Source of the DNA: a bacterium
Lineage (GTDB): Bacteria > Vulcanimicrobiota > Vulcanimicrobiia > Vulcanimicrobiales > SCRA01
Reading direction: 5' to 3'
NCBI GenBank assembly: GCA_004298665.1
Contig: SCQY01000254.1
Location: forward strand, 1 to 59,719
DNA: 59,719 nucleotides
This document shows positions 12,026 through 55,381 of this stretch, in pieces. Under the pieces are notes generated by a model, which worked only from the letters and a program-made list of their open reading frames with translations, made no database searches and was not told the origin of the DNA. Made by a program: the position numbers and the translations under genes. Positions within the stretch are counted from its first letter, which is position 1, and each line of letters begins with the position of its first letter.

Positions 12026-13246
12026 TTAGGCCTGCGGCAGGCCGCCCATCACCCGAGTGAGGACCGTCTGCTTCACGCCGCCGCGAACGTCGTGGCGCTT
12101 GACCGTGCCCCGGATCGTCAGGAGTTCGCCCTGGTGGAGGCCGCGGAAGCGCGGATCATAGGAGGCGAACCACACGGCCTCGCGGCCATCTACCGTGGTG
12201 AAGCGGGCAAGGAAGCAGTCCCCGAAGCGGCTGGCCAACGGCCGTACGTCGATGAGGGTGGCGTCGACCTCGATGCGCTTGCCCACCGCCCCGATGAAGT
12301 CGCTCAACGCCACCGCCTGCTGCCGCCGGCGCGCCTCGGCCTGCTCGCGGAGCCAGGAGGGGACAGCCGAGGCGAAGAGTCGGAAGTCCCTCCCCTCAAG
12401 TGCCGGCTTGCCGGCGAGGACCTGGAGGTTCCGGCGGTACTCGGAGTCGCCGCCTTCTTGCGCCCAGGCGAGGACGGCCTTGGAGACGTCGTGGTCGGCG
12501 TCGGTGACGCGGAAGTCGGGATGCTCGGCGAGGAAGTCGCGCCCGTAGCGATCAAGTACCAGGATGCCCCAGACGACATCGGCGGTGGCAAGGCCGGCTC
12601 CCTCGCGCGCCTTGGCGGCGCTAATCCAAGGGATGACATTGGCGACCGCATGAGCCGTTGCGAGCGCCTCCAAGGGCGCCACGCCCGGCGCGGAATGACC
12701 GCCGCTACCAGAGAAGCCGTCATCCTCTCCTAAGGCTTCGATCTCGCGGATGATCTCGAAGCTCGCAGCGACCGCGTGGGGATCGACCCCGAGGAAGTCG
12801 TGGATGCAGGTGCTCCCGACCTGTTGCGCTTCGCCCGCGGCGTTGGTGACGACGTAGGTATCGCTGCGCCGCCGAAGCACGCGGCAATGATCGCACCATG
12901 CGGGCCGTATGGAGTACGAGGCCGGGATGGTCTCGCCGGGGAGAGAGCGGATGACCGTGCCGGTCGCTTCGTGCTGAAGTACGGCGGCCAGGCGCCACCC
13001 GCCGGGGAGCGCCAGGACCTCGGCCGCGACGTCGACCTGGAGGTAGCGGGTCATGAGCGGCGGGAGCCCGAGGACCGCGCGCGCCTCCCGCTCTTCAGGG
13101 GAGATGGCGGCGCGCTTCGCGATCTCCCCGACCACCACCCAAGTCGGCGGGGTGAGATTAAACCGCGCCGCGCGCCGAGCGAGGCGGGTGAGCGTGGCCT
13201 CAAGGTCCGAGAGTCTGAAGGCGGGGATCTCGTAGCGCAACGTCAT
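12026..13246 (-). CDS. Conserved phage/plasmid hypothetical protein with CxxC and C-terminal OB-fold-like domain
   Basis: WCDHCRVLRRR...VGSTCIHDFLG; FIGAVGKR...LTIRGTVKRH...QTVLTRV. Confidence 0.7.
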   Translation of the reverse strand: MTLRYEIPAFRLSDLEATLTRLARRAARFNLTPPTWVVVGEIAKRAAISPEEREARAVLGLPPLMTRYLQVDVAAEVLALPGGWRLAAVLQHEATGTVIRSLPGETIPASYSIRPAWCDHCRVLRRRSDTYVVTNAAGEAQQVGSTCIHDFLGVDPHAVAASFEIIREIEALGEDDGFSGSGGHSAPGVAPLEALATAHAVANVIPWISAAKAREGAGLATADVVWGILVLDRYGRDFLAEHPDFRVTDADHDVSKAVLAWAQEGGDSEYRRNLQVLAGKPALEGRDFRLFASAVPSWLREQAEARRRQQAVALSDFIGAVGKRIEVDATLIDVRPLASRFGDCFLARFTTVDGREAVWFASYDPRFRGLHQGELLTIRGTVKRHDVRGGVKQTVLTRVMGGLPQA

Positions 13247-13260
13247 ACTCTAAGTATAGC
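13244..13260 (-). promoter_or_regulatory. Palindrome copy, leaderless type
   Basis: GCTATACT-TAG-AGTATG; ATG is the start of 12026..13246. Confidence 0.8.
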
Positions 13261-13482
13261 GCATGCCCAGCGGTTGCGTGCCGCCCGCAGCGCATGCCTT
13301 CAGGTTTCACCTTCGTCGTGACCTGTGCCGCGCGGCTGACCAGCGTCGGCAACGCCGTCGTAGCCGGACGGCCAGCGCTAACGTCACGAGCTTGATCGCG
13401 CGCGCTTGGCAACGGTGAAGGCGTACGCGCTATCGGCGTGGCCGCTACACGTCTCAAAGTCGCCTTCCCGCCGCGTAAGTTC

Positions 13483-13641
13483 CTAGTGGCGCGCGATGGC
13501 GAGGCCGATTTGCCAAGCCACTTCCACCCCGGCCAGGAACGCGAACGTGGAGAAGAAGACGGTCTGGACGAGTGCGTCTAGCCCATCGTCACCGGAGATC
13601 GCGCGGTCAATGGCACACACCGCTCGCGCGACGAGCCTCAC
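13483..13641 (-). CDS. Small membrane protein
   Basis: GTGA overlap with the upstream ORF; hydrophobic C-terminus. Confidence 0.4.
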   Translation of the reverse strand: MRLVARAVCAIDRAISGDDGLDALVQTVFFSTFAFLAGVEVAWQIGLAIARH

Positions 13642-13820
13642 GCCGCGCCTCCTTGCAGAGCAGCGTAGTAGGCGGCGATCGCGCTTGAGCGCGCCGCGCG
13701 CGTGTACGCGCCGTTTCGGCGAAGGTAGACGGTTAGCTCGGTCGGCCCGCGGCGCTTTCCCTTGGCAGCGTCGGCGATCGCCCAGGACTTCGCAAGGGCG
13801 GAGGCGGCGCGGCCATCCAT
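13638..13820 (-). CDS. Hypothetical 60-aa protein
   Basis: TAATG coupling, GGAGG RBS. Confidence 0.45.
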   Translation of the reverse strand: MDGRAASALAKSWAIADAAKGKRRGPTELTVYLRRNGAYTRAARSSAIAAYYAALQGGAA

Positions 13821-13945
13821 TAGGCCACCTCCCGCGAGAACCAGAGGCCGCAGAAGCGGCAGTTGAAGTGCGCGACGGCACGCATGATCGTGATGGAGGC
13901 GTTCTCGGCGCCGCACCCGGGGCAGGAAGCGAAGGCGTCGTGCAA
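13820..13945 (-). CDS. 41-aa Zn-ribbon micro-protein (not in ORF track)
   Basis: GGAGG then TTG; MHDAFASCPGCGAENASITIMRAVAHFNCRFCGLWFSREVA with two CxxC. Confidence 0.55.
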   Translation of the reverse strand: MHDAFASCPGCGAENASITIMRAVAHFNCRFCGLWFSREVA

Positions 13946-13968
13946 GGCATTCCTCCGTGGTGGTGTGT

Positions 13969-13987
13969 GCTATACTCTAAGTATAGC
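13969..13987 (-). promoter_or_regulatory. Palindrome copy, full type
   Basis: GCTATACT-N3-AGTATAGC perfect; extended -10 TGCTATACT. Confidence 0.8.
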
Positions 13988-14088: not shown

Positions 14089-15237
14089 TCATCCCGCTTC
14101 GTCGCGTCGACCGGTTCCAGGGAGAGCACCGAGGAGCAGTTGCAGCTCCGCTTCCCTGGAGATCGGCGAGGCCGGCACGTCCCGCCGGCGCGCTTCTGCC
14201 TGCCACACGGCGAGGTTCTCCGCGCTTACGCCAGGCAGCCACGTCACAGTGTCCGGCGTGACGGCTGCGAGGCGCTTTCGTCGCACGTCGTCGTAGAAGA
14301 GGTCAGCGCCAACGAACGCCCGCCCGGCCTCGGCGCATGCTGCTGCCGTCGTGCCAGTCCCGGAGAAGGGGTCGCAGACGAGATCCCCCGGCATCGAATA
14401 CAGCATGACTGCGCGCTTCGCGAGCGCCAACGGAAACTGCGCGGGATGCCCTGGGGCGCGCTCCGGATGATTCGCCTTCACCTGCTCGATCGGCCAGACG
14501 TCAGTTGGCCAGGCACCGAGCGGATTACAGGTAAGCTCCCCCTTGTGCGGACCTTTGTACGCGCGCTTCTCGGGGTGCCGCTGCGGCGTGCGGGCTGCGG
14601 ACGCATTGAAACGGGGGGAGTCGCCCTTACACCAGACGAGTGCCGCCTCGTAGCGTTCGGCGAGGCGCCGCTTCGGCTGGAGGCCATGGCTCTTCGTCCA
14701 AATAACGCGGCTCTGGAATGTGAGGCCAGCGCCGCGGAAGTCGTCGAAGAAGAGTATGTCGAGCGGCACAGTCTGGTTCGCGTCGTCGCGCGTGTTTCCG
14801 AGCTGCACGAAGGCCATGGCGTTGGGCTTGAGGGTGCGGGCCATCTCGGAGATCACCTGCATCATCCACCCGTGGTAGTGCAGGTGGCGCATGCGATCGG
14901 CGCGCGGGGCCTCGCCGTAGACTTTCCCGATGTTGTACGGGGCCGACGTCACGATGAGGTCTAGCGAGTCGTCGGGCAGCGAGTCGAAGAAGTCGAGGAT
15001 GTCGGCGGTCACGGTCTCGCCGATGATCGCGCGCAGCGTCTCCTCCTGGCGCCGCCGACGCTCCTCGGCCCGCTCGCGGATGCGTGCCTCGTGCTGCCGC
15101 GCCCCGTGGCGAAGCAGGATCTCGTAGACGAACCCGCGCGATCGCCCGATGCGATCAGCCGTCTCCTGATAGGTGAGGCCGTCGGCGCGCAGCCGAAGCA
15201 CCTCGCGCTCGATCGTGGCAACAGCGACGGCGCTCAC
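14089..15237 (-). CDS. Orphan beta-class N4-C/N6-A DNA methyltransferase with N-terminal HTH
   Basis: DLIVTSAPYNIGK catalytic motif precedes DPFSGTGTT SAM motif; HPAQFP; GTG start overlapping the upstream TGA. Confidence 0.88.
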   Translation of the reverse strand: MSAVAVATIEREVLRLRADGLTYQETADRIGRSRGFVYEILLRHGARQHEARIRERAEERRRRQEETLRAIIGETVTADILDFFDSLPDDSLDLIVTSAPYNIGKVYGEAPRADRMRHLHYHGWMMQVISEMARTLKPNAMAFVQLGNTRDDANQTVPLDILFFDDFRGAGLTFQSRVIWTKSHGLQPKRRLAERYEAALVWCKGDSPRFNASAARTPQRHPEKRAYKGPHKGELTCNPLGAWPTDVWPIEQVKANHPERAPGHPAQFPLALAKRAVMLYSMPGDLVCDPFSGTGTTAAACAEAGRAFVGADLFYDDVRRKRLAAVTPDTVTWLPGVSAENLAVWQAEARRRDVPASPISREAELQLLLGALPGTGRRDEAG

Positions 15238-15533
15238 GCAGCGTCGGCCTCGATCGACCCATCGGAGAGGAGCACACCGTGACGATTCCCGACGCGCTCC
15301 GAGCGATCGAGCTGGAGTTGCCGCACCGCCTGGGTGGAGAGGGCTGCGTAAGGCGCTACGGCCTCGAGCAGTTCCGCGATGGTCCCGAAGCCGCCGAGCT
15401 TGTCGAGAGCACGGACGCACTCCCCCTTCGTATTCACGAGCTGCGCAAAGAAGTAGTCCAAGGGGCGGTCGTATCCCACGAGCAAGCGGCGATTGCCGAG
15501 GAGCATCGCGGGAGCGACAACGTATCGCGACAT
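15234..15533 (-). CDS. Hypothetical protein
   Basis: GGAGG RBS downstream of a palindrome; coupled to the MTase. Confidence 0.6.
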   Translation of the reverse strand: MSRYVVAPAMLLGNRRLLVGYDRPLDYFFAQLVNTKGECVRALDKLGGFGTIAELLEAVAPYAALSTQAVRQLQLDRSERVGNRHGVLLSDGSIEADAA

Positions 15534-15552: not shown

Positions 15553-15571
15553 ACTATACTCTAAGTATAGC
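15553..15571 (-). promoter_or_regulatory. Palindrome copy, full type
   Basis: GCTATACT-TAG-AGTATAGT. Confidence 0.8.
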
Positions 15572-15764: not shown

Positions 15765-16436
15765 CTATTGTCGCGCGGAGGCGGTAGTGGTAACGGGTGC
15801 CCCAAGCGCCGCAGCGTCGAGGTGTGCCAGCGTGGCGGACGAGCTTGGGAAGGAGATCAGGAAGCCGTACGTGCCGCGCGGGGGCTCACTATAGTGTGCG
15901 TTCTCCGTTCGTAGGCGCCACGCGAGGGCCGCGAGGGCAACGTCAGCGCTGCTACCCCAGGGGACGAATACCGATATCGTGGCGATAGCGTAGTGAACGA
16001 AGCCCCCAGTAAGCAAGAGCGCGATGGTTGCACCGGCGACAAGAAAGGGTAGGGGCGCCAAGGCGACAAGGATCGTGTGGCCAGCAGTCATTGTCTTCTC
16101 GTCGCTCAGGCGGGTATACGCGCGCAGGATTGCGATGTTTGGCACCAGGTCGAAGTGTATTGATCCACTATACCGGAGCGCCCGTAGGGCAAGCAGATGA
16201 AGGGCTTCATGCCCCACGATGAATACGCCCATAGCGGGCAAGACGACCACAAAAAATACGCCGTAATCGCGCGCGGACGGGATCGTGCCGATCCGCAAGA
16301 ACGTAAGCCACTGGTGGACCAGGTCTACCACAAACGGTGCAGTCAGAAGGATGAGCGTGACCGCACCCAGGATGAGCGGGGCCAGGGCGACGGCCCTGGC
16401 CGGGCGCAGTGGAGATGCGAAATGGCGCGTTTCCAC
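15765..16436 (-). CDS. DUF3267-like membrane zinc metalloprotease
   Basis: TM segments, HEALH (HExxH), VALAP, SSAD. Confidence 0.7.
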   Translation of the reverse strand: METRHFASPLRPARAVALAPLILGAVTLILLTAPFVVDLVHQWLTFLRIGTIPSARDYGVFFVVVLPAMGVFIVGHEALHLLALRALRYSGSIHFDLVPNIAILRAYTRLSDEKTMTAGHTILVALAPLPFLVAGATIALLLTGGFVHYAIATISVFVPWGSSADVALAALAWRLRTENAHYSEPPRGTYGFLISFPSSSATLAHLDAAALGAPVTTTASARQ

Positions 16437-16548
16437 GGATAGCGCAGGTCCTTTCTATGATAGAGTGGCGCGCACGGTCAGCTCCCAGCGCGCCCGGGTG
16501 TTGCGTGGTGACAGGGCGCCAGCAGCGGGGCTACGAGGCCGCGGGCGC

Positions 16549-16806
16549 CTAGGACTTCGATGAGCGATACCGTGCCGTCGCAGCGTTCTTGGCGCACGCC
16601 TGCGAGCAGAAGTAGTGCTTCGCGCGGCGCTTCGTCGACGTGATCAGACGGTCGATCTTGATATGCTCGACTTTGCAGTATTCGCACAACGGGAGTTTCT
16701 CATCATAGACCTCGCCTACGACGAGGCGCTTCCCGTGTACGGTGACAGTAAGACTGCTCATGGCCTCGGGGTTCGCGGCCGGCAAAGCCGGGTCCCGGCC
16801 GCTCAC
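16549..16806 (-). CDS. Small Cys-containing hypothetical protein
   Basis: CEYC...HYFCSQAC; GTGA overlap. Confidence 0.5.
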   Translation of the reverse strand: MSGRDPALPAANPEAMSSLTVTVHGKRLVVGEVYDEKLPLCEYCKVEHIKIDRLITSTKRRAKHYFCSQACAKNAATARYRSSKS

Positions 16807-16907
16807 CGGCGGCCGAAGAAGAAGAGGTCAAGCAGCGCCAGCAGCCACCGGCCGCTGACGAGGTCGCGTAGGAACAGGAACGACATGAGCGTACTGCGGC
16901 GGTTCAT
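16803..16907 (-). CDS. 34-aa hydrophobic peptide
   Basis: MNRRSTLMSFLFLRDLVSGRWLAALLDLFFFGRR; first ORF after a palindrome; GGAG RBS. Confidence 0.4.
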   Translation of the reverse strand: MNRRSTLMSFLFLRDLVSGRWLLALLDLFFFGRR

Positions 16908-16935
16908 CAAGGGCATCTCCGTGGTCTATGGAGGC

Positions 16936-16954
16936 GCTATACTGTGACTATAGC
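16936..16954 (-). promoter_or_regulatory. Palindrome copy, full type
   Basis: GCTATAGT-CAC-AGTATAGC; extended -10. Confidence 0.75.
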
Positions 16955-17773: not shown

Positions 17774-18211
17774 CTAGTTGACGGACAGCGCGGCGATGCC
17801 ATCGGGGCCGTCGAGACCATCGCAAGTCGAGCACAGATACAGCGGGCGGCCGTCTCCGTCGAGGTGACGCACCGTTGCGGCGGCACCGCAGTCCGCGCAC
17901 AGCGGCGCGCAGCACGCGCAGTAACGGTGGACCTTATAGGCAAGCGCGGCACCCCCGCCGAGGTCCAAGCGCGCCTTCCAGGGCATCGCACGGATCACGG
18001 CGGCCTCGTCCTCGAAGTCGGCGTTGTCTCGGCGCAGTTCCCCAAGGGTGGTCGGCCAGGAGTGCTGCTGCAGCGTGCCAGCCATGGTCGTCACAGTGAT
18101 ATGGACGTCTTCATCGGGGTCCCAGGTGTTGCGCTCCAGCAGGGCGGGACAGTCGGGCCAGGCGTGCTCGCTCGGGTGGAGGTGACAGGCACTACGCGAT
18201 GAGATCGTCAT
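17774..18211 (-). CDS. Cys-rich hypothetical protein
   Basis: Leaderless start in a palindrome copy; several CxxC. Confidence 0.55.
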   Translation of the reverse strand: MTISSRSACHLHPSEHAWPDCPALLERNTWDPDEDVHITVTTMAGTLQQHSWPTTLGELRRDNADFEDEAAVIRAMPWKARLDLGGGAALAYKVHRYCACCAPLCADCGAAATVRHLDGDGRPLYLCSTCDGLDGPDGIAALSVN

Positions 18212-18225
18212 ACTCATAGTCTAGC
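18209..18225 (-). promoter_or_regulatory. Palindrome copy, leaderless type
   Basis: GCTAGACT-ATG-AGTATG; extended -10. Confidence 0.7.
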
Positions 18226-18774: not shown

Positions 18775-18950
18775 TCCTCACTGTGATAGCGAGCTGGTGC
18801 GATAACGCCGAACCACGGCGTGGAAGGTAAGGAACCTCGGCGCAGGCAGTCAATGACGCACGCGCGCGTGAAGCCCGCGTTCTGCTCGCCGCCGCCGGCG
18901 TACGGCGAGTTGACGACGACAAGCATGAAGGAGCGTACTGCTACGGCCAT
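18765..18950 (-). pseudogene. Truncated phage protein (LVIVESPYAGD...ARAC..DCL.RGE family)
   Basis: LVVVNSPYAGGGEQNAGFTRACVIDCLRRG matches the family N-terminus, then diverges and stops. Confidence 0.45.
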
Positions 18951-18964
18951 ACTCGTAGTATAGC
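18948..18964 (-). promoter_or_regulatory. Palindrome copy, leaderless type
   Basis: GCTATACT-ACG-AGTATG; extended -10. Confidence 0.8.
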
Positions 18965-18983: not shown

Positions 18984-19874
18984 TCACGCGGTTGCAGGGA
19001 GAGAGTAGGTCGCCGGCGCCGATCGCACGCAGCGTGCCTGCAAGACCTGGCGGACCTTCTCGCGCCACCAGGCCGTCGTCGTTGGGCGACGACCCTCGAT
19101 AGCGCGTGCGATCTGGTCCACCGTTCCCGTACCGCCTAGATCCATGAGCGCGGCCCTAACGACAGCCCACCAGACGCCGCCCTTTGGTGCGTCCTCGAGC
19201 AGCGCGCGGTACCGCTCGGCTAGGTTCTTCGCGTCGCGCGTCTCGTGATACAGAGCGAAGCCAACCAGCGTCCGTCTGCGATCCTTGGAAAAGAGCGCGA
19301 AGAGCAAGGGCATCGAGAGACCCGGGAAGATGTTCCGTGGAATCAGAGACTGATCGATAGACCAACTCTCGGCATAGCGGCACACGCGCGAGGCGGTCTG
19401 GAAGATATACGCAGGCAAAATGAAGCCGAGGCGGCCTCCATCCGGGAGCAACCGGTGACAGCGTGCGAGGAAGCCGTCGATGACGTCGAGGTCGAATGGC
19501 GGGTTACCTACGACGGCGGTCGGCTGAACGTCGAGATGGACGGTACGGAAGTCGCCCTCGATGATGCGCCGCCCCGTGCGCACGCGAGCCTCGGCCGCGA
19601 GCGCCGTGTCGATCTCCACGCCAACGGCTGGCACAGTCGCTGGAAGCGCGGCCAAGAAGCGGCCAGGGCCGCAACTAGGCTCAAGAACGAGGTCCTCTCG
19701 ATCGAGGTGCGGGAAGTATCGCGCGATGATCTCCTCGCATACCCATGCTGGCGTGAAGAACTGGCCTAGAGCCCTGGCCGCCGGCGACGTTTGGCCCTGT
19801 GGAGGCGCCACGGCACCGCGGTCTGACAAGAAATTGAACGCGCTGGCCGCGTCGCTGTCGTTGCGTCTCGCCAT
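18984..19874 (-). CDS. Orphan N6-adenine DNA methyltransferase with C-terminal wHTH-like domain
   Basis: GQFFTP, VLEPSCGPGRF, VVGNPPF. Confidence 0.88.
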   Translation of the reverse strand: MARRNDSDAASAFNFLSDRGAVAPPQGQTSPAARALGQFFTPAWVCEEIIARYFPHLDREDLVLEPSCGPGRFLAALPATVPAVGVEIDTALAAEARVRTGRRIIEGDFRTVHLDVQPTAVVGNPPFDLDVIDGFLARCHRLLPDGGRLGFILPAYIFQTASRVCRYAESWSIDQSLIPRNIFPGLSMPLLFALFSKDRRRTLVGFALYHETRDAKNLAERYRALLEDAPKGGVWWAVVRAALMDLGGTGTVDQIARAIEGRRPTTTAWWREKVRQVLQARCVRSAPATYSLPATA

Positions 19875-19888
19875 ACTCTAAGTATAGC
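19872..19888 (-). promoter_or_regulatory. Palindrome copy, leaderless type
   Basis: GCTATACT-TAG-AGTATG; extended -10. Confidence 0.8.
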
Positions 19889-20007: not shown

Positions 20008-21072
20008 CTACGCCGTTGCAGACTCGCGTTTGAGCTTCAGCTGCGCAGCATCGCAGTCACCGTCGGCGACATCGCCACGAACGCGGAGGAACGTTGGCTG
20101 ATAGAGCGAGCCGCCCGCGTAGGCGTAGAGGTAGCGAACCTCCACGAACGTCCCGATCGCGGGCTTCGCAGCGTTGGGTGGGATCGTTACGTTTCCGACC
20201 TCGACCCATCCGGCGTTCCCGCGCATCTCCAAGCCAACACTCTGCTTGGCATTATGGCGTGAGACGCGGCACGTCGCAGTCTCGTAGAACTTGAACTTGA
20301 ACTGGGTGCCGTGTTTCCGTCCTGCCTCGACCGGGGCATCGGCTCGCTTGAAGACGACGCCTTCGGCGCCGGCGTCATAGAGCGCATTGAGTGCCTCGCG
20401 CTTGTTGGCGTGGCTGACCCCGACGACCGCTATCCAGGGAGAGGGGACATCACGCAGCAGTGCGATAAGCGCCTCATGTCTCGCGGCAAAGGGGCGTTCA
20501 TTGCCATGCCCGCCGGCCTCGAGGAGGTCGAACACGTGGTAGGTATCGCCGACGAGCTCGCCGTCGACGATGAACGAGTCCTCGGGCAGAGCCAGGATGT
20601 CTGCCACCAGCGCTTGTGGCAGGCTTGCGGCATTCCCGAGCTTGTTCGCGCCGACCACGGAGCCGCCGTCGCGCCGTACCATGAGACGCTCGCCATCGTG
20701 CTTCTGCTGCATGAGGTAGCGAGCGTCATCGAGGAGGCGTTCAGCCTCGGAGCGCTCGATGGGGATGAGCAGTTGCGGACGCAAGCCGGTGTCAGTTGGC
20801 ACGCTAGCGATTACGGCCCCGCCAGGAGCGCCCTGCGAGACACGGTAGTGCTTCTTGACCTTGGCGGCCACCAGGGCATCGAACGCGGCCCGCGCTGCGG
20901 CGAGGGCCGGGAAGACGCCCTTTGGCTGGAGCTTGAGCGCGGATCCAATCCGGCCGTTGAAACCGTTGACCGCGAAACCACTACCCGTCTCCTCGAGCTG
21001 CACGCGGTAGGCTTTGGCACTCCCTTCTTCGGTGCAGGTGAGCAGGACGGACGCGATGACGGAAGCAGGCAT
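20008..21072 (-). CDS. WGR-domain ATP-dependent DNA ligase
   Basis: N-terminal KAYRVQL...NGRIG (WGR-like); KHDGER motif I, VDGEL, FDLL, EGVVFK, C-terminal OB fold. Confidence 0.85.
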   Translation of the reverse strand: MPASVIASVLLTCTEEGSAKAYRVQLEETGSGFAVNGFNGRIGSALKLQPKGVFPALAAARAAFDALVAAKVKKHYRVSQGAPGGAVIASVPTDTGLRPQLLIPIERSEAERLLDDARYLMQQKHDGERLMVRRDGGSVVGANKLGNAASLPQALVADILALPEDSFIVDGELVGDTYHVFDLLEAGGHGNERPFAARHEALIALLRDVPSPWIAVVGVSHANKREALNALYDAGAEGVVFKRADAPVEAGRKHGTQFKFKFYETATCRVSRHNAKQSVGLEMRGNAGWVEVGNVTIPPNAAKPAIGTFVEVRYLYAYAGGSLYQPTFLRVRGDVADGDCDAAQLKLKRESATA

Positions 21073-21094: not shown

Positions 21095-21113
21095 GCTATA
21101 CTCTAAGTATAGC
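21095..21113 (-). promoter_or_regulatory. Palindrome copy, full type, between divergent ligase and rusA-like genes
   Basis: GCTATACT-N3-AGTATAGC perfect; extended -10. Confidence 0.8.
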
Positions 21114-22367: not shown

Positions 22368-23492
22368 CTAGGAGCGCTTCTTGTGCCCCTTCAGCGCGAG
22401 GAGCGCGCCATGAACGGCCTTGATCTCATCCTCGGCGAGGTCGTCGATCGTGGTAACGTCCGCGTGGATTACCTCTCGGACGTACGCCAGGAGCGCTTCC
22501 GGGCTCTCGAGGCCCTTCTCTTCTCCGAGCGTCACCACGGAGCGCTTCCACGGGATCGAGGCAGCCTTCACGCCGCGCTCGGCGGCGCTGCGCCATGCGG
22601 GCTGCTGAGCCTTCGGCTCCGGCGCATCCTGTGCCGCCGCTGCGGCGTCGTCGGCCCGCTCCGCCGCGGCTCCCGCTGCCGCATCGTCTCCCTGGGCGCT
22701 GGCGGCCGTAGCCCCATGTTCCGCGGCAACGGTGGCACCCTGCTCCTCGATCATCGCTCCCAGCGTAGAGATGTAGGCGTCCTGACCCGTTGGCGGATCG
22801 TCCTCCGGCGCTGCGGGCCTTAGCGCTTCCGCACGGGCTGCGAGCCGTCCGGACGCCCCGGTCGCCACGACAGTGGCCTGCTCCGCGACCGCGTAGTCGC
22901 GAACCTCTTCGGCGATGGCCAAGCCGCGCAGTATGTCCGACGCGCCGTCACGAAGCGTCCACGAACGCGCGCGCATCTGGTGCATGCGCTCCTCGTACAG
23001 AGCCCAGGGACCTTCCTTACCAATCAGGCGCGCCTTCTTCGCTTGAGCGTACGTGAAGGAACGCGTGACCGGCGTGCGGCCCTTGCGCGTGAGCGTGCAG
23101 TACGCAACGCGCTTCTCGCCTTCGCCCTCGAACCACTCCTTGCAGTCGACGAACGACGGGTGGGCCTGCACGAGCGCCAGCGCGTGATCACCCCAAATCG
23201 AAGGGCGGCCGTTGATCACCGCGATACCCTGAAGGCTCTGCGCCGGCGATAGACCGACCTGGGCACCCTCGGTGATCGCGATGAGCACGTTGGCCGGCTT
23301 GCCCTTGTAGTCTTTCGGCGCGAAGTCGGAGCCGGCGAGCATCTTGCAGAGGTACATCGCCTGCTCGAAGTTCTGCGGTCGGATCGCGTCGACGAACGCC
23401 AAACCGATGCTGGCGGGTCGGCCACCCGCCGTGGAGATCGGGACCACCTCCGGGAGCTGTTGCTCCTTGGTGGCGCCGTTGGTCTGACCCAT
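22368..23492 (-). CDS. recT: RecT/Bet-like single-strand annealing protein
   Basis: KGKPANVLIAI..G..VGLSP.QSLQGIAVINGRPSIWGD; GPW...RM..MRA; next to YqaJ. Confidence 0.85.
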   Translation of the reverse strand: MGQTNGATKEQQLPEVVPISTAGGRPASIGLAFVDAIRPQNFEQAMYLCKMLAGSDFAPKDYKGKPANVLIAITEGAQVGLSPAQSLQGIAVINGRPSIWGDHALALVQAHPSFVDCKEWFEGEGEKRVAYCTLTRKGRTPVTRSFTYAQAKKARLIGKEGPWALYEERMHQMRARSWTLRDGASDILRGLAIAEEVRDYAVAEQATVVATGASGRLAARAEALRPAAPEDDPPTGQDAYISTLGAMIEEQGATVAAEHGATAASAQGDDAAAGAAAERADDAAAAAQDAPEPKAQQPAWRSAAERGVKAASIPWKRSVVTLGEEKGLESPEALLAYVREVIHADVTTIDDLAEDEIKAVHGALLALKGHKKRS

Positions 23493-25756: not shown

Positions 25757-26218
25757 CTACAACGTTAGCCCGCTTAACCGGGCCTTCGGCTCAGCGAGGT
25801 TCGGAGAGCGCAGTGCGATGGCAAGAAGATCGGTTCGCAACTGACCGACGACGTCGCGGTACACGTCATCCTCGTCGATGAGTCGGGAAATGCGGTTGTG
25901 AGCGTACAATGCGCTGGTGTGGTCCCTGTAGCCGAAGGCTCTGGCAAGTTGAGGGTACGAAAGGTTCTTCAACTCGCGTACCAGGTAGAGCGCAATATGG
26001 CGAGCGGCGACCTCGTGAGGCTCCCTCCCTGACGCGCGGACGGCATTCGGCTGCACGTCGAACGCATCTGCGACGTGTTCGATGATCGCGTTGGTCGGCA
26101 GGAATGGAATGCGCCTTTGCGATGGCGCCTTCACTCCGAGGCGATGCGCGGCCCAGCCTGTCGTTGGGAGAGCCGCAGAATCGAAGGCGGGAGTGGGAGT
26201 AGGGAGTATCGATTCCAT
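25757..26218 (-). CDS. Stand-alone DnaA C-terminal (domain IV) DNA-binding protein
   Basis: IIEHVADAFDV...ARHIALYLVREL.NLSYPQLARAFGYRDHTSALYA. Confidence 0.85.
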   Translation of the reverse strand: MESILPTPTPAFDSAALPTTGWAAHRLGVKAPSQRRIPFLPTNAIIEHVADAFDVQPNAVRASGREPHEVAARHIALYLVRELKNLSYPQLARAFGYRDHTSALYAHNRISRLIDEDDVYRDVVGQLRTDLLAIALRSPNLAEPKARLSGLTL

Positions 26219-43302: not shown

Positions 43303-44013
43303 TCATGCAGCGTGACCAGCCATGACGGCACGCAAGCGCTTGATGGCCGCTTGGCGGATCTGAGTGACCCGTTGGCGCGAGAGCCCTATGTCGCCGGCGA
43401 TTGCTTCAACACGATCGCCGGCGACGTAGTGCCGCTCGAGGACGAGGCGCTCGCGCGGCGGAAGACTAGCGATCGCCGCTTTCAGGGCCCGAGCTGTCTC
43501 CGTTTGGCAATAGTCGGTCAGCGGATCGCCGCCCATGGACGGCTCGAAAGCGTTTTGCGGGAACGGAGTGTCCAGCGAGAGCACGGTTCTGAAGCCATCC
43601 CTCGCCGCTATCTGCCGCTGCCGGCGGACGCTCACGCCGGTCACCGCCGCAATTTCGGCTTCCGAGGCCTTTTCGGCCGTGCGGCTGTAGATCGCATGTC
43701 GGGCCGTGTCGATCGCGCGCCAATCCCGTCGAACGCCGTCCGGGAGTGGGTCGAGCTGGCGCGCCCCGTTCAACATCATGCTCTTGGCCACACGATAGAC
43801 GTACGTCGCCAGAGAGGCGCCCCGCGACGGATCGAAAGTCTTCAGGGCTCGCGCGATTCCGACCAATCCCTCGCTGAGGAGGTCGTCGTATGCGACCGGT
43901 ATCCTTGCCGCGACCGAGCGCGCGAGACGGCGCACGACGGGGAGCATTGCGGCGGCCATGGCCTCGCGTTCATCGGCAGTCCAGGGGGATGCGCCCGCAA
44001 CCATGCCAGCCAC
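43303..44013 (-). CDS. Sigma-70 family factor, FliA/WhiG (sigma-28)-like
   Basis: DDLLSEGLVGI...FDPSRGASLATY; AIASLPPRERLVL...EAIAGDIGLSRQRVTQIR. Confidence 0.85.
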   Translation of the reverse strand: MAGMVAGASPWTADEREAMAAAMLPVVRRLARSVAARIPVAYDDLLSEGLVGIARALKTFDPSRGASLATYVYRVAKSMMLNGARQLDPLPDGVRRDWRAIDTARHAIYSRTAEKASEAEIAAVTGVSVRRQRQIAARDGFRTVLSLDTPFPQNAFEPSMGGDPLTDYCQTETARALKAAIASLPPRERLVLERHYVAGDRVEAIAGDIGLSRQRVTQIRQAAIKRLRAVMAGHAA

Positions 44014-44014: not shown

Positions 44015-44506
44015 CTAGTGGTCCTCCCGCTGCCCCGGCCCGAACCCCGGCATGGGCTTATCGCAGGCGTAGCACCGAGGATCGCCCAACCGAAAGACCG
44101 CGATGTGCTGGTGTGAAGCGGAGGGGTTCGCCACGCTGGGGAGCGTGTCGAAGTCGGGGTTCACTGCGTCATCGTGTTCCAGGAGGATCAGATGCTTTTC
44201 GCACAGGCGCTCGTTGTCGCTCGTCGTCCTGCAGAGATAGCACGGGGAGCCGTTTACGCCGATCTCGAAGGCGCTGTTGAACGGCAGCCCGTTGTACCGA
44301 CAGAGCTCGGTGCAGTCCACGACCCGGTGCAACGTCTCGTGGTCCAACCCGTGCTGGATCGCCGCATCCCAATCGACCACGGTCAGGCCGGCCTGCTCGC
44401 CGTCGTGAAAGCGGCGCAGGTCAGCGGTGGACACAACCTCGCCTGTGTCAGGGACGTGGATCAGATCGTCCGGGTGAAGGTCGCGCTGGCGTTGTGCGTG
44501 TGGCAT
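44015..44506 (-). CDS. Cys-containing hypothetical protein
   Basis: Leaderless start in a palindrome copy. Confidence 0.55.
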   Translation of the reverse strand: MPHAQRQRDLHPDDLIHVPDTGEVVSTADLRRFHDGEQAGLTVVDWDAAIQHGLDHETLHRVVDCTELCRYNGLPFNSAFEIGVNGSPCYLCRTTSDNERLCEKHLILLEHDDAVNPDFDTLPSVANPSASHQHIAVFRLGDPRCYACDKPMPGFGPGQREDH

Positions 44507-44520
44507 ACTCATAGTATAGC
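44504..44520 (-). promoter_or_regulatory. Palindrome copy, leaderless type
   Basis: GCTATACT-ATG-AGTATG. Confidence 0.8.
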
Positions 44521-44559: not shown

Positions 44560-46305
44560 TTACGCGACGGCCTCGTCGTTGTGACCGAGCCCGAGGGCAA
44601 CGATGGCTTGACGATAAAGGGCAAGGGCGACGTGTACCGAGACGGCATTGCCGATCTGCGCGGTTTGCGCCGTCTTGGTGCCGGTAAAGACGTAGCCTTC
44701 GGGAAATCCCTGGGCACTAGCGAGCTCGCGGGGCTGGAGCATCCGGAAGCGAATGCCGAGCTTGTAGAGTGCGCCGTCGATCTCCACCACGTAGGGCGAG
44801 TGGCCCCTGGGTTCTGTGGGCGCGAGGTACGGCTCCACGAGGTCGCCAGCGCCTCGGTGCGTCACCGTCGGGAATGGGCTGTCAACGGAGTGAGTGCGGG
44901 GCGCCTGGCCGTCGCGCTCTCCAAAGTGCGCGACCAGGAACGGCTCGACCAGGCGGACCCCGCGAGAGGTAGTCGTGATCGTGCCGAGCGGCTCGGCAAC
45001 GGACGCCGTGCCGTCGCCGTTCTGAGGCACGATAAACGGCTCCACCATGCCAACGCCGTTCTTACTCGTGATCGTGCCGAGCGGTTCATCCGTGCTCTTC
45101 GGGCGGTGCGGCGCGTCGCCGTGACGTACGTCGATCAGGAAGGGCTCGGCCACGCCGAAGCGATCGCGCGTAATGACGGTCGCGAGCGGTTCCTGGGCGC
45201 TCTTGGGACAGGCAGCATCCTTGCCGGAACCTTTGCCGTCGCGTTCGGCGTAGGAGACGATGAACGGCTCGCAAACGCGGATGAAGCCGTCGGTTGTGAC
45301 AGTCGGCATCGGGTCGTCAATCGATCGGGCGACGGCGCCGCCGTGCTGGCCGAGAGTGAACGGCCGCAGCTCTGGCTCTGCGAGGCCGAGGTGCGTACCA
45401 CCGGCACAGATCGTCGGAATGGGTGCGTCCAGGGACCGAGCATCGGCGTGCTGCCGCAGTGCGACGATGAACGGCTCGACCGCCCGGCCGGAGCAGTAGC
45501 GGCGAATGCCCGCTTCGATACGCGCGATGGTGTTTGGAGAGAGCGGCGTATCGCGCTCGAAGATGTCTTCGCTCGGCAGCGAGAAGTCGATGATCTCGCG
45601 CGCAGGCACCCAGGGAAGGCGTTGACCCGTTTCAACCTCGAGGGTCCCGGGCTTGCCGTGGGTTGGTCGCGGGAAGGTGTAAGAGTAACCGTGCGCCGCG
45701 AAGACGACGAAGAGGCGGATGCGGGTCTGTGGCTCGCCGAAGTCGGCGGCGTTCAGGAGGTCCCAGCGTCCGGTATAGCCGAGGGATTCGATAGCCGAGA
45801 ACCAGGCGTGGAAGGTCTCGCCGCGACGGTTCTTGATCGGCCGGAAGATAGGCTCGTCGTTCTTGTCCAGCACGGGTTCCCCGTGGCGATTGCGGATGGC
45901 CGCGACGGGTCCCCATTGGAGGAACTGTCTCACGTTCTCTACGATGATGATCTTCGGGTGCAACGCCTCGGCCATGCGAACGATCGACCACGCGCTCGCG
46001 CGCTTCTGGTCGTCGATACTGTGGCCGCCCTTCGCATAGCTATGCTCGGTGCAAGTTGGGCTTCCCCAAAGAATATCCAGCTTACCCTCGGGCACGAGCT
46101 TGTACGGGCTCGTGTTGTCGAGATCCATGCACCAATGCCGTTCCGCTGGAAAGTTTGCTTCGTGGCTAGCGATGGCCACGTTCCAATGGTTGATCGCCGT
46201 GAGGTGATACGACACCGAAAACTCGGCGCAGGCCGCAGCAAGGCCCGCGCTACTTCCCCCCGCGCCGCAGTACGTATCGGCAACTCGAAGCATAGGCAAT
46301 GTCAT
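44560..46305 (-). CDS. Orphan C5-cytosine DNA methyltransferase with repetitive variable region
   Basis: DTYCGAGG, WGSPTC, ENV, PQTRIR, RMLQPREL..AQGFP, QIGNAV. Confidence 0.92.
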   Translation of the reverse strand: MTLPMLRVADTYCGAGGSSAGLAAACAEFSVSYHLTAINHWNVAIASHEANFPAERHWCMDLDNTSPYKLVPEGKLDILWGSPTCTEHSYAKGGHSIDDQKRASAWSIVRMAEALHPKIIIVENVRQFLQWGPVAAIRNRHGEPVLDKNDEPIFRPIKNRRGETFHAWFSAIESLGYTGRWDLLNAADFGEPQTRIRLFVVFAAHGYSYTFPRPTHGKPGTLEVETGQRLPWVPAREIIDFSLPSEDIFERDTPLSPNTIARIEAGIRRYCSGRAVEPFIVALRQHADARSLDAPIPTICAGGTHLGLAEPELRPFTLGQHGGAVARSIDDPMPTVTTDGFIRVCEPFIVSYAERDGKGSGKDAACPKSAQEPLATVITRDRFGVAEPFLIDVRHGDAPHRPKSTDEPLGTITSKNGVGMVEPFIVPQNGDGTASVAEPLGTITTTSRGVRLVEPFLVAHFGERDGQAPRTHSVDSPFPTVTHRGAGDLVEPYLAPTEPRGHSPYVVEIDGALYKLGIRFRMLQPRELASAQGFPEGYVFTGTKTAQTAQIGNAVSVHVALALYRQAIVALGLGHNDEAVA

Positions 46306-46319
46306 ACTCTTAGTATAGC
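46303..46319 (-). promoter_or_regulatory. Palindrome copy, leaderless type
   Basis: GCTATACT-AAG-AGTATG. Confidence 0.8.
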
Positions 46320-50852: not shown

Positions 50853-51875
50853 CTACTGGGGGAGCGTCGCCGGTGCGCGCTTTCCGGCCTTGCGTAGCGA
50901 CCGTGCACGCTGCAGGACCGGCTTGAGGTCGGCGAGCGTCCTCCCACCGTGGAGGCCGCCGCGCTTCAGCACCGCGTCGTCCTGCTCGCCGCGGAAGGCC
51001 GCGTGCGCTAGCGCCCCTAGGCGCAAGCTGTGTGGCGAGCAGCTCTCGGGGTCGATGCCAGCGGCGGCGCAGCGGCGAACGACGATCGCGTAGATTGTGC
51101 GCGGGGAGAGCGCCTCCGGTAGGATATGACCCTCTTCGTCGACGTGGCGCCAAACGAGTCCCCGCTCGATAGCGGCCAGACGCAGCCAGCCTTCTAGGCC
51201 GATCACTGGGCACAGAATTGGCGAGGCGCTGTACTCGAGCGTGACATCGCGTTCGCGCTGCGGGAGATCCGAGGCGTTGACGCGCAGGCGCAGCCCGCGG
51301 TCAGCCGCGGCGATCTGCTCGGCTTCCAGGCGCGCCAGCTCGGCACGACGGAGGGCGCCGTGGAAGAAGACCAGGATCATCGCGCGGTCACGGGCGTCCA
51401 CGGCGCGATCGTGGGCGCTGGCGAACCGTCCCGCGACCCGTAGCTCGCGATCCATCGCGTCGATAATGGCGCGCAGCCCTGTTTCCATGATGGCGAGCTT
51501 GCGCTCGCGCGGCCGCCGGTCTTCCGTGAGGATACCCAACCAGAGGCGGCGCACGGCGTCGTCTTGGGTTGGATCAGGGAAACGGTGCTCGCGGTGCTTG
51601 GCGCGAATTGCGGCGCGGCGCTGCTTAAGCGTGCTCACGGAGGCTCCGTCGCTACTATCCCAGCGGTCGGCGAGATAGAGGCGGACGGAGTCGGGATGAG
51701 CCGGGAGGGCCTTGCGGCCGTTCAACTCGCACCATTCGGCGAAGTCGCGCCACGAACGGCCATAGGCCAGGCGGGTGTTCTCCGGCTGGCCTGCGGCTGC
51801 GAGGGTGGTGGCGCTGGCTTCTAGCGCGCGCTGGTCGCGCCGGCCGTCCGCCAGAAGGTGGAGCTGACGCGGCAT
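50853..51875 (-). CDS. Tyrosine-recombinase-family protein, apparently lacking catalytic Lys and Tyr
   Basis: NTRLAYGRSWRDF, RDRAMILVFFHGALRRAEL, CPV, HSLR; no Tyr after HSLR; TAGACT-6nt-ATG start. Confidence 0.8.
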   Translation of the reverse strand: MPRQLHLLADGRRDQRALEASATTLAAAGQPENTRLAYGRSWRDFAEWCELNGRKALPAHPDSVRLYLADRWDSSDGASVSTLKQRRAAIRAKHREHRFPDPTQDDAVRRLWLGILTEDRRPRERKLAIMETGLRAIIDAMDRELRVAGRFASAHDRAVDARDRAMILVFFHGALRRAELARLEAEQIAAADRGLRLRVNASDLPQRERDVTLEYSASPILCPVIGLEGWLRLAAIERGLVWRHVDEEGHILPEALSPRTIYAIVVRRCAAAGIDPESCSPHSLRLGALAHAAFRGEQDDAVLKRGGLHGGRTLADLKPVLQRARSLRKAGKRAPATLPQ

Positions 51876-51942
51876 GCGCTAAGTCTACCCCGAACGCACG
51901 TTTGGGGCAAGCCGTTGAACGCCGGCGCCACCGCGCCGGGGG

Positions 51943-53333: not shown

Positions 53334-53712
53334 CACGTTCTCTCCTCGTGTGTTCATCATCATTCACGACACGACGGTGTGCGTTGGTATCTCTAGTATA
53401 GTGCTCCCCATAACCACACGTGCTGCGTCTCTTCGTCACCATGAGATACCATTGTCGACTCACCCGGCCACCGCGCGGCCGCCTCGCGGTGCGCGCGCAG
53501 CGCGCAAGAAGTTGACGAAGAAGAAGCGCACGGGAGGCGCGGCGGGGGAGCGGTGCGGTTATGGGGAGACGGTGCGCTGCTCCGCACTGATCGCCGTGCG
53601 TCGTGGCTAGCGGAGGTCGGACAGGCGCGGACGGACGGCCGCAAAGACGGCGAAGCGACGACGGGCGGGAAGCGGAAGTCTACAGAGCTCCGCTAAGGGG
53701 AACTACCTGCGC

Positions 53713-53856
53713 GTGAGAGACATCGACGGCTCCCTGCTCGACCTCAGCTCCCCGGAGAGCCGGCCACGCGGCGACGTCGCGACGATTGTGTGGCCTTGGC
53801 TCCTCGAGGAGTTGCAAGCGTGGCTTGTGCGCTACGATCGCCGGTACGGCTCCTAA
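53713..53856 (+). CDS. 47-aa micro-protein, paralogue A (not in ORF track)
   Basis: MRDIDGSLLDLSSPESRPRGDVATIVWPWLLEELQAWLVRYDRRYGS; similar to 57696..57845. Confidence 0.65.
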   Translation: MRDIDGSLLDLSSPESRPRGDVATIVWPWLLEELQAWLVRYDRRYGS

Positions 53857-55337
53857 GCCGCCTCAGCGGTCGTGCCTACCCCGACCGCGAAGATGCCAGG
53901 CTGTTTGAGCGCCAGCGCCGCAACCTGCCCGCCGATACGCGTCGTCGCACGGTAGTAGCCTTCGGTGAAGTGGTCGTCGGCGTAGTAGTGAGCAAACTCG
54001 TGAATGATGATGTTCAGGACGCCGGCGATATGCTTGGCATCGAGTGAAAACCAGGCGTGACGTAGCGTTTGCAGGTTGAAGTCGAGTTGCCGCCCTCCGA
54101 AGCAGGCGTAGAAGTCGCCCCGCGCTCGTACGATGCGCACGGTCGGCGTGTAACCCAAGACGTGCTCACCGAGCCGCGCCGCCAGCGTTGTGACGTCGCG
54201 CATCCCAGGAGTGTAGTCGGAAGAGTCGATCACCGGAACCTGCTCGGCATCCTCGCCGTCGCTGTAGGGCTTCACGGTTGGCGTGACTTGCCCAGCGGGG
54301 AGAATCTCCGTGCTCTCCTTGACCGCCGCCCACTGCGCCTTCGAGAACGCGCCGCCAGCGATCACCGTGTAGCCCTCGGACGCCGCCTTCGTGTTGGCTT
54401 CGCGGTCGGAGGGGTCGTAGACGACGACCTTCTCGCCGAACCGCTCCCGGACCACGCTCCGTACCGCCTCGGGGCTCACCCGGTCGTCCTCGAGCGCGTT
54501 GCCAACCCACGTTGACGCGGCGCTCTCCTTGTCGAGCATGGCGTGGGTGGCGTTCAGTACCTCGGCGCGCAGAGTGCGGAGATAGCTCGGCGTCACGTTG
54601 TCGCGGTCCTGATTTAACGGAACCTTCTGGAGCACGTTGACGTGGTAGCGATCGCCGATCTCCACGACCGGAATGCCCATTTCGTAGATGGTCGCCTCTT
54701 CGCCGTCCAGAGGCTCGTACAGTTCGACGCCCGTCTTGCGCGTCGTGCGGCGCAGGATGCCCTCGGCGTCGGCAAGCACCGTAGGAAGGCTCACCTCGAA
54801 CGTCGCGATAGGCTTGCGACACGGGATACACTCACCATTGAAGATCGTCTCGATCTCGGTGGGAGGAATGAGGCGCCGCAGGTCGTGCTGAACCTCCCTG
54901 ATCTCGGCCTGCGTCATCGCGATGATCGCCTCGAACCGGCTTCCCATCTCGGTGCGCTCGAAGTTGAGTTGGCGATCGCCGTCTGCCGTGAACGTCACAC
55001 CGCCCGACGTCGAGATGATCGCCGCCTGCTCGCACAGTGCGAGCACCAGCTTCTCGCCCAAGTTGAAGCGCCCGCGCTTGGTTGCGTCGGCCTTCTTGGT
55101 CGACTCCGCGAACAACGTATAGGCGTGGCTGAGATCCTTGAAGCCGTCCGGGTTATCATCCGCGACGATTAAGCGCGCTTTCCCGCGCTTGCCGGGAATA
55201 GGCGCAAGGGTCCCGACGACTTTCTTCGTCTGCTCGTCCCACGCGTTCTGGAACAGCTCGTACAGCAGAAAGCCTTTCGGCTTATCGGCGACGAGTTTAC
55301 GAAGCCCCTCTTTATCGACTGTAAACCAACTTGGCAT
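53853..55337 (-). CDS. GHKL ATPase with C-terminal HExxH zincin-like domain
   Basis: ELFQNAWD (N box), DDNPDG, KRGRFNLGEK; IIIHEFAH. Confidence 0.75.
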   Translation of the reverse strand: MPSWFTVDKEGLRKLVADKPKGFLLYELFQNAWDEQTKKVVGTLAPIPGKRGKARLIVADDNPDGFKDLSHAYTLFAESTKKADATKRGRFNLGEKLVLALCEQAAIISTSGGVTFTADGDRQLNFERTEMGSRFEAIIAMTQAEIREVQHDLRRLIPPTEIETIFNGECIPCRKPIATFEVSLPTVLADAEGILRRTTRKTGVELYEPLDGEEATIYEMGIPVVEIGDRYHVNVLQKVPLNQDRDNVTPSYLRTLRAEVLNATHAMLDKESAASTWVGNALEDDRVSPEAVRSVVRERFGEKVVVYDPSDREANTKAASEGYTVIAGGAFSKAQWAAVKESTEILPAGQVTPTVKPYSDGEDAEQVPVIDSSDYTPGMRDVTTLAARLGEHVLGYTPTVRIVRARGDFYACFGGRQLDFNLQTLRHAWFSLDAKHIAGVLNIIIHEFAHYYADDHFTEGYYRATTRIGGQVAALALKQPGIFAVGVGTTAEAA

Positions 55338-55364
55338 TGGAGCGCTCTCCTCACATTGCACGAA

Positions 55365-55381
55365 GATACTATAAGTATAGT
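55365..55381 (-). promoter_or_regulatory. Palindrome copy, leadered type
   Basis: ACTATACT-TAT-AGTATC, upstream of the GHKL gene. Confidence 0.7.

Follow-up and report, generated by a model that had tools for sequence, protein, structure and literature searches.

The window analyzed here is the whole of contig C227 (SCQY01000254.1; 59,719 bp, 65% GC), a plasmid sequence from a 3.16-Mb, 362-contig bin of a groundwater metagenome. A 19-base palindrome, GCTATACT-N3-AGTAT(A/G)nC, is repeated along it in 12 strong copies, and we give an even chance to the reading that each is a promoter-operator module through which a dimeric repressor controls a regulon of establishment and anti-defense genes. 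Only for a few model plasmids is it known how the expression of such genes is timed after transfer. In the uncultured groundwater plasmid lineage studied here, 19 bp seem to unite a promoter, an operator and, optionally, a start codon, and this module stands at the head of at least 12 operons. If confirmed, the module would provide a new pair of operator and regulator, and the plasmid would be an instance of systematic leaderless expression in a bin (the putative host) that is otherwise led by Shine-Dalgarno (SD) sequences; it might also turn out to encode a sigma factor of new specificity. Being small and portable, the module could be useful as a synthetic-biology part.

Distribution of the palindrome

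An earlier note on this DNA had described a dispersed palindrome marking a plasmid-wide regulon, and the element proved to be real. A weight matrix built from the good copies was run on the window and on the other 3.1 Mb of the assembly. The 12 strong copies scored 25–36 bits, and the next-ranked matches on the window were those at 40868 (15 bits), a weak copy, and 51871 (11 bits). The 16-mer GCTATACTNNNAGTAT, allowing up to one mismatch, gave 19 strand-hits versus 0.01 expected from shuffles. No copy was found in the other 3.1 Mb, where the top score was 12–14 bits; the regulon is thus plasmid-specific, in support of the earlier reading, with the same short operator-like site at many promoters of one replicon and none in the rest of the assembly, the chromosome included. 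On the window, TATACT is followed by N3-AGTAT in 12 of 16 cases, whereas none of the 140 TATACT and 26 GCTATACT occurrences on other contigs (about the number expected by chance) is followed by N3-AGT, so the right arm is not a trait of ordinary TATACT boxes.

All strong sites are intergenic or at gene starts, in the minus sense, which is that of the minus-strand gene or operon that begins downstream. The operons so headed include the N6/N4, C5 and putative third methyltransferases, the ligase, the RecT-like protein and the GHKL-like protein, in agreement with the earlier note. The sites and the genes they head are as follows; gene labels on the window come from domain searches, with about 14 small called open reading frames (ORFs) outside the scan.

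13242–13260, minus: GCTATACTTAGAGTATGAC, 34.8 bits; ATG 13246 opens a predicted leaderless 406-amino-acid (aa) ORF (12026–13246, phrog_2319).
13969–13987, minus: perfect palindrome GCTATACTTAGAGTATAGC, 35.7 bits; SD sequence and ATG 23 nt 3′; small ORFs (13483–13950).
15553–15571, minus: 34.3 bits; heads a 99-aa ORF and the N6/N4 DNA methyltransferase (14089–15533).
16936–16954, minus: C7>G, 26.3 bits; heads an 85-aa Zn-finger ORF and a DUF3267 zincin-like ORF (15765–16916).
18207–18225, minus: 27.9 bits; ATG 18211 opens a predicted leaderless 145-aa Cys-rich ORF, followed by small ORFs.
18946–18964, minus: 30.6 bits; ATG 18950 opens a predicted leaderless 61-aa ORF.
19870–19888, minus: 35.1 bits; ATG 19874 opens a predicted leaderless 296-aa putative methyltransferase.
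21095–21113, minus: perfect palindrome, 35.7 bits; heads an ATP-dependent DNA ligase with a WGR domain (20008–21072).
23524–23542, minus: A12>T, 32.4 bits; heads a RecT-like annealing protein (22368–23492) and a 112-aa ORF.
40868–40886, minus: weak copy GCTATAATCAAGGTATGAC, 15.3 bits; ATG 40872 opens a predicted leaderless 86-aa ORF.
44502–44520, minus: 29.8 bits; ATG 44506 opens a predicted leaderless 163-aa Cys-rich ORF (44015–44506), followed in the operon by a sigma factor, a DUF5131 protein, an ASCH-like ORF and a DUF5710 ORF.
46301–46319, minus: 34.0 bits; ATG 46305 opens the predicted leaderless C5 cytosine DNA methyltransferase (44560–46305).
55363–55381, minus: ACTATACTTATAGTATCTT, 25.1 bits; heads a 502-aa protein with a GHKL/sacsin-like ATPase domain (53853–55361).
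51871–51889, minus: non-palindromic, −10-like TAGACT, N6, ATG, 11.3 bits; tyrosine integrase (50853–51875), predicted leaderless.

The weaker palindromes previously proposed at 24653, 49437, 52902 and 53387 scored at background or below (8.7 bits; unlisted; 8.2 bits, on the plus strand; and unlisted, respectively), and are at most −10-like boxes. A fifth, at 51873, turned out to be the TAGACT-N6-ATG of the integrase, which has no AGT arm.

A probable promoter and start codon within the motif

The left arm, (T)GCTATACT, is very probably a promoter of the extended −10 type, (T)GnTATACT, that works without a −35 box. G occupies position 1 (−14) in 11 of the 12 strong sites and C position 2 (−13) in all 12, while the base 5′ of the motif (−15) is T in seven. 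When the copies were aligned, nothing was conserved outside the 19-mer, including any −35; a consensus scan of the region from 12 to 28 kb found no canonical sigma-70 −35/−10 promoter, and Rfam gave no hits.

In eight of 14 sites, counting the weak copy at 40868 and the integrase site at 51871, positions 15–17 of the motif are ATG. These codons open ORFs of 406, 145, 61, 296, 86, 163, 581 and 340 aa, and those at 13246, 18950, 19874, 40872, 46305 and 51875 are the first possible start codons after the upstream stop. The FxGxG-type motif (YCGAGG) near the N terminus of the C5 methyltransferase starts as early as residue 12, which leaves little room for a start codon further in. Because the A of the embedded ATG falls 7 nt past the −10 hexamer, where +1 normally lies, the genes of this type would be leaderless, with AUG at the first transcribed base. 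This register bears out the earlier view of the left arm as a −10 box and of the right arm as covering +1. The other six strong sites have ATA or ATC at positions 15–17, and a GGAG-type ribosome-binding site with a start codon 23–36 nt downstream. Among 1,345 long ORFs in the rest of the bin, SD signals were strong and TANNNT stood at −12 of the first start codon in just 18; the leaderless design is therefore a trait of the plasmid and not of the bin.

Conservation of the right arm

The right arm contains G13 and T14 in 21 of 21 sites and A12 in 18 of 21, making AGT at −3 to −1 almost invariant. Its outer part (positions 17–19) is palindromic mainly in the sites with a 5′ leader, and reads AGC in five of the seven sites free of coding constraint. 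The dyad, with 8-bp arms and a 3-bp spacer, lies over the core promoter from −14 to +5, as placed by the ATG register, and its half-site centers, read from the sequence, are 11 bp apart, or one helical turn. The integrase promoter has the same register with CGC in place of AGT, which identifies AGT as an added feature. Hence a promoter function can account for the left arm but not for the right one, since AGT is nearly invariant, the integrase does without it, and the outer arm mirrors the left one. The integrase promoter (50853–51889, minus) may be viewed as a natural “operator-less” version of the module.

Two related elements carried the motif. Relative A (L067 and L324, and probably also L175; European Nucleotide Archive sample ERZ27256801) shows 86–91% protein identity and has motif sites heading its sigma operon, ligase and putative methyltransferase. 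Relative B (L035/L227, the same as SCRI01000005.1, of metagenome-assembled genome (MAG) FW021_bin.74, GCA_004298675.1) shares few genes, at 44–75% protein identity, and has five motif sites on 8.5 kb, in one orientation; one ATG-type site opens a 194-aa ORF. The orthologous sites are:

L067:1518, relative A: the sigma operon site, 44502.
L324:633, relative A: the ligase site, 21095, with spacer TAC.
L175:284 and L324:1866, relative A: the putative methyltransferase site, 19870.
A site on L227, relative B: matches 15553, with the arms kept and the spacer changed.
L227:398, relative B: matches 16936.

In five orthologous pairs, the left arm was identical at 39 of 40 positions and AGTAT at 25 of 25, compared with 8 of 15 for the spacer, 9 of 15 for the outer right arm and about 43% for the flanks. 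Both arms were kept while spacer and flanks drifted, and thus are under purifying selection, a pattern that fits a symmetric binding protein. The earlier description of conserved arms around a varying spacer consequently stands for the arms; the spacer is not fully free, as it reads TAG in seven of 12 sites.

Relative B also carries, at L227:3316–3432 and 4993–5037, mini-ORFs of 38 and 14 codons that are apparently leaderless: they start within the motif arm, and each stop overlaps the following ATG (as ATGA), which suggests translational coupling from a 5′-terminal AUG. In the same MAG, an exact copy of the motif (L226:14856–15444; SCRI01000041.1, GCA_004298675.1) heads an operon, predicted to be leaderless, of a ribbon-helix-helix (RHH) antitoxin (75 aa) and a PemK/MazF toxin, in a neighborhood that looks chromosomal, with metabolic genes. 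By our own estimate, chance would yield about 0.004 such exact matches in 3 Mb; the module is therefore portable.

The exact palindrome, searched in 185k genomes, gave 66 single chance hits and one true relative, L035; scans of metagenomes and viruses with the commonest 16-mer returned mostly chance matches in AT-rich DNA, L175 alone being related. Scans for related loci that needed exact 8-mers, with single-protein queries (the sigma factor; the methyltransferase), found no matches, and distant homologs of the 406-aa protein (L233, L234) and of the ligase (L325) were without the motif. Four perfect GCTATACT-N3-AGTATAGC matches in a Lachnospiraceae fecal MAG (JBGVLO01; L039, L052, L060) are unrelated: they form the center of a longer, repeated hairpin with a 16-bp stem, terminator- or REP-like, in DNA of 38% GC.

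A proposed repressor-controlled module

In the reading to which we give an even chance, each copy would be a compact promoter-operator module. The left arm would direct initiation at the A of motif position 15, 7 nt after the hexamer; the right arm, AGTATAGC, would mirror the left one and complete a 19-bp operator from −14 to +5, on which a dimeric, plasmid-encoded putative repressor would occlude RNA polymerase. With A at position 17, the transcript would have a short leader with its own SD site, and with G the arm would supply a 5′-terminal AUG and the gene would be leaderless. The module would head at least 12 operons, for DNA modification, repair, recombination and small proteins. A symmetric 8-3-8 site in this position has the classic operator layout for a dimeric repressor that excludes RNA polymerase, and establishment regulons under repressor control are known (PMC8708921). 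As the plasmid is of the MOBP type and carries anti-defense and establishment genes, a burst of expression would be expected in a repressor-free recipient, followed by shut-off. We infer the existence of the repressor, the sigma factor that reads the promoter (either the host primary factor or the FliA-like factor of the plasmid) and the timing after transfer.

The earlier proposal of a dimeric repressor acting on an ArdK- or Reg-like establishment regulon is consequently supported by the gene content and by the selection on the right arm, but its repressor was not identified, and several observations weigh against it. Among the ORFs scanned on the window there was no cognate repressor and no homolog of known regulators. 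The contig is not closed (its ends do not join, and each falls in DNA that is repeated or varies between strains); the full replicon may be larger, and the regulator may lie elsewhere on it. None of the four candidate regulators named before (3170..3793, 6845..7129, 25757..26218 and 50853..51875) gained support: the winged helix-turn-helix (wHTH) proteins at 3215–3793 and 6845–7180 and the DnaA-domain-IV protein at 25757–26134 had no motif-linked support, nor any counterpart in the MAG with relative B, except its chromosomal DnaA. The N-terminal helix-turn-helix (HTH) of the N6/N4 methyltransferase was rejected as the repressor, being only about 25% identical between two elements with an identical motif. 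The spacer TAG occurs in a single orientation, a bias that a symmetric binder alone leaves unexplained. The sigma factor encoded within the regulon could by itself account for conservation of the left arm. Finally, the sequencing runs that hold the sequence are of DNA alone, with no RNA run, so that the start site is placed by register.

Other candidates were rejected as well. The RHH antitoxin P0045, from GCA_004298675.1, has no homolog in the window or its assembly. As a recombination site, judged by known site architecture, the motif has a 3-bp spacer that is too short for tyrosine recombinases and, being odd, misfits serine recombinases; as a target of methylation or restriction, it holds no consistent known site within its arms.

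If no repressor exists, the motif could be a promoter only, that is, a portable and optimized −10 and start-site cassette in which AGTAT would fix a T(−1)/A(+1) start for the leaderless AUG, and the palindromy would reflect a bidirectional promoter or be a by-product. Leaderless translation requires exact placement of the 5′ AUG, and T(−1)A(+1) is a favored start context. The lack of a regulator among the ORFs scanned agrees with this explanation, as does the portability of the module, which heads the chromosomal toxin-antitoxin operon in the MAG of relative B; moreover, the perfect copies have an equally good −10 on the plus strand. However, sites with a leader need no exact placement of AUG and still keep the 8-bp mirror arm (AGC in 5 of 7), and the integrase uses the same register without AGT. 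Any antisense transcript would enter upstream genes from their 3′ ends and serve no ORF, and the ATG-type sites weaken the plus-strand −10 to CATACT. We therefore consider a promoter without a dedicated repressor decidedly doubtful.

The plasmid sigma factor

Within the operon that begins at site 44502 lies a gene absent from the earlier note, which allows the left arm to be read in another way, as a rival or a complement to the first:

43303–44013, minus: sigma-70-family factor, FliA/WhiG-like, 236 aa.

Among 5.8 billion proteins it is nearly an orphan, with one relative at 91% identity and the next at 35–39%. It lies behind, and would be co-transcribed with, the predicted leaderless 163-aa Cys-rich protein (44015–44506), a possible partner or anti-sigma factor. 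In Pseudomonas aeruginosa FliA (9wsm), R80, D87 and R97 are reported to read −12G, −13C and the GC extended −10 (PMC12784957); in the alignment with the plasmid sigma factor, these residues correspond to V, N and D, respectively.

On this basis, the motif could be the cognate promoter of the plasmid sigma factor, with no dedicated repressor. In that case GCTATACT would function, independently of any −35, as an 8-bp composite −10 read by the plasmid factor, not (or not only) by the host primary sigma factor; the sigma operon, being under the same promoter, would create a positive feedback, and the right arm would be an element of the initiation region or a separate control site. The position of the sigma gene in a motif-headed operon, which is conserved with its site in relative A, favors this possibility, and so does its near-orphan status. 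The changed FliA contact residues argue for a new specificity, the invariant C at −13 lies outside the TGn rule of sigma-70, and sigma-28 promoters too depend on an extended −10 (PMC12784957). The motif is also the sole over-represented promoter-like element found on the contig. A canonical sigma-28 (FliA) promoter, TAAA-N15-GCCGATAA, is not what the plasmid carries: GCCGATAA was not enriched (48 matches versus 42 expected) and no TAAA-type −35 was seen. On the other hand, when accompanied by T at −15 and G at −14, TATACT comes close to the extended −10 consensus of primary sigma factors, and the plasmid factor retains a region 4 with −35-contacting Gln/Arg although no −35 is conserved. It would also face a bootstrap problem on entering a naive cell, and it leaves unexplained both the exact mirroring by the right arm and the near-invariant AGT at −3 to −1. 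For these reasons, we regard a sigma-only explanation as unlikely.

The sigma factor could equally be the polymerase-side partner in the operator model. In the fullest form of that idea, which we advance as a long shot, the plasmid would have a self-contained, host-independent expression system, in which its own diverged FliA-like sigma factor reads the 8-bp, −35-less promoter GCTATACT, the mirror arm binds a dedicated repressor, and a single A-to-G change in that arm makes any cassette leaderless, with transcription beginning at its AUG. If true, a broad-host-range element would express and then silence its anti-defense cargo without host −35 recognition or SD pairing.

Orientation relative to transfer and the hairpin alternative

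The relaxase operon is on the minus strand, and the presumed origin of transfer (oriT) is next to it (9482–9738). A candidate nick, GTCCTG/T (the slash marks the nick), is on the plus strand 3′ of an imperfect inverted repeat that was found by eye, the repeat finder being silent. If the plus strand is the one transferred, the minus-strand genes from 10.8 to 27.7 kb would face oriT and the transferred strand (T-strand) would be their template. Leading-region genes have such an orientation, allowing the T-strand to serve as template (PMC11541004). The motif sites at 40–55 kb extend the regulon beyond the leading end, making it plasmid-wide.

The 8-bp stem and 3-nt loop could fold on single-stranded transferred DNA and act as a promoter or priming signal before synthesis of the complementary strand; the earlier note had offered, as its second possibility, a hairpin that rebuilds the −10 box. 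N4 early promoters resemble the motif in stem and loop size. The perfect copies fold at −4.9 kcal/mol (z = −3.6), and every motif-headed gene is on the minus strand, and so transcribable from the presumed T-strand under the orientation rule (PMC11541004). The ATG-type copies, half of the sites, nonetheless fold at only −1.2 to −1.3 kcal/mol, and among 38 arm positions that deviate across 21 sites just one pair is compensated, which indicates that pairing was not selected. Geometrically, one and the same 5′ arm would be needed both as the non-template −10 and as template for −3 to +5, in conflict with sigma-dependent initiation. With respect to virion RNA polymerase hairpins of the N4 type, the ORF lists hold no ORF of the size of a single-subunit RNA polymerase, the ORFs scanned gave no RNA-polymerase family match, and the loop center is 5 nt from the expected +1, versus about 11 nt in N4. 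With the leading-region promoters Frpo/ssi (F, ColIb-P9), the plasmid shares leading-type genes oriented for T-strand transcription, but Frpo promoters are long imperfect hairpins that rebuild both −35 and −10, whereas no such structure was found here, the 8-bp stem containing no −35 and folding weakly even at its best (PMC11541004). A hairpin signal is accordingly highly improbable, and the earlier suggestion is not upheld.

Comparison with known plasmid regulons

The regulon would be a variant within the known class of plasmid global or establishment regulons, unusual in having a start codon inside the putative operator arm and a plasmid sigma factor among its members. In IncP-1 plasmids (RK2/RP4), the KorA operator OA is a short palindrome found at many promoters, where it overlaps the −10 and controls genes of the maintenance and anti-restriction types. 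The palindrome described here is likewise repeated plasmid-wide over the −10, and a parA-linked control region is also present (3215–5337; wHTH gene, iterons, parA and an RHH-like gene). The sequence of OA is different (GTTTAGCTAAAC, versus GCTATACT-N3-AGTATAGC); unlike it, the present site extends to +5, can hold the start codon and belongs to promoters without a −35, and no KorA homolog was found among the ORFs scanned. In the ArdK/CUP system of IncN pKM101, and at the ArdK boxes of IncW R388, repeated strong promoters precede leading genes and a repressor shuts them off after establishment. The likeness lies in the leading and establishment genes (anti-restriction, ssb) under repeated promoters; however, CUP repeats long conserved segments instead of 19 bp, leaderless starts are absent from the ArdK/CUP systems, and no ArdK-like protein was detected among the ORFs scanned.

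In the Bacillus plasmid p576, the establishment operons regulated by Reg(p576), including ardC, share a promoter with an adjacent or overlapping operator and are expressed transiently after transfer (PMC8708921). A shared promoter with an overlapping, here predicted, operator is common to both plasmids (PMC8708921), but the Reg(p576) system has a Gram-positive host, sigma-A promoters with −35 and −10, a different operator sequence and no embedded start codon.

The operators of the C-proteins of type II restriction-modification systems have palindromic cores of the form ..ACT-N3-AGT.., with frequent leaderless transcripts and timing control in a new host (PMC2632904), and the present motif has both the ACT-N3-AGT core and the apparently leaderless genes. 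C-boxes, in contrast, lie 5′ of the promoter, about 18 nt from the start codon, usually as a 35-bp double box with a GTG spacer, and C-proteins act mainly as activators at weak promoters (PMC2632904). On the window, a single 19-bp box covers −10/+1, and no HTH_3/Xre match was found among the ORFs scanned.

Other features of the contig

The remaining gene content, by domain search, includes:

7897–9279, minus: MOBP-type relaxase, forming with a NikA-like RHH accessory gene the unit 7897..9481, minus.
4059–4919: ParA.
Backbone: a Rep-like wHTH protein.
Toxin-antitoxin type: two zeta/AAA_33 kinases with small partners, and a Fic/VbhA-like pair.
Establishment/anti-defense type: SSB, ArdC-N with a zincin, the N6/N4, C5 and putative third methyltransferases, the ATP-dependent ligase with a WGR domain, and a recombination pair, RecT-like and YqaJ.
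Others: SRAP, DUF6573, a PLD nuclease, an Mrr-like protein, RecD2-, SNF2- and ResIII-type helicases, a VirB11/T2SSE ATPase, a GGDEF protein and the tyrosine integrase.

A MOBP relaxase, SSB, ArdC and orphan methyltransferases are the kind of content found in plasmid leading or establishment regions (PMC11541004). Plasmid and phage collections, searched by megablast with 20 kb, yielded no match or close relative, and a Rep search in 300 genomes of the same order found no relatives. Contigs C230, C346 and C187 of the bin were compared with C227: RpoB of the bin showed at most 78% identity to Bacillota or Actinomycetota sequences, and the Logan depth was 73 for the plasmid versus 59 and 42 for two other contigs of the bin. 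The bin may be mixed, and the assignment of the plasmid to its host is putative.

A 12-kb block on the plus strand (27810–40059) is without any motif copy. Its genes encode a RecD2-like helicase, a VirB11/T2SSE ATPase, a GGDEF protein, ResIII and SNF2 helicases, an Mrr-like nuclease and ArdC, and it is possibly a second, sigma-dependent tier of expression.

A divergent promoter region (3116–3214), between a small ORF beside a zeta-like kinase and the 192-aa wHTH gene, holds a separate palindrome, GCATG-A-CATGC, and a related half-repeat; this palindrome probably acts in local autoregulation. Another repeated element, CGTAGTG(G/T)(T/G)GT, has seven matches versus 0.8 expected, including those at 3845–3855, 3973–3983, 13956–13966, 23511–23521 and 24599–24609. 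It forms iteron-like repeats 5′ of parA, and also occurs ahead of the YqaJ gene and in the 5′ leaders adjoining sites 13969 and 23524; exact copies of the 16-mer CCTCGCGTAGTGGTGT lie at 23506 and 24594. This element may constitute a second, KorB-like layer of control, acting through the ParG-like RHH protein (4921–5337).

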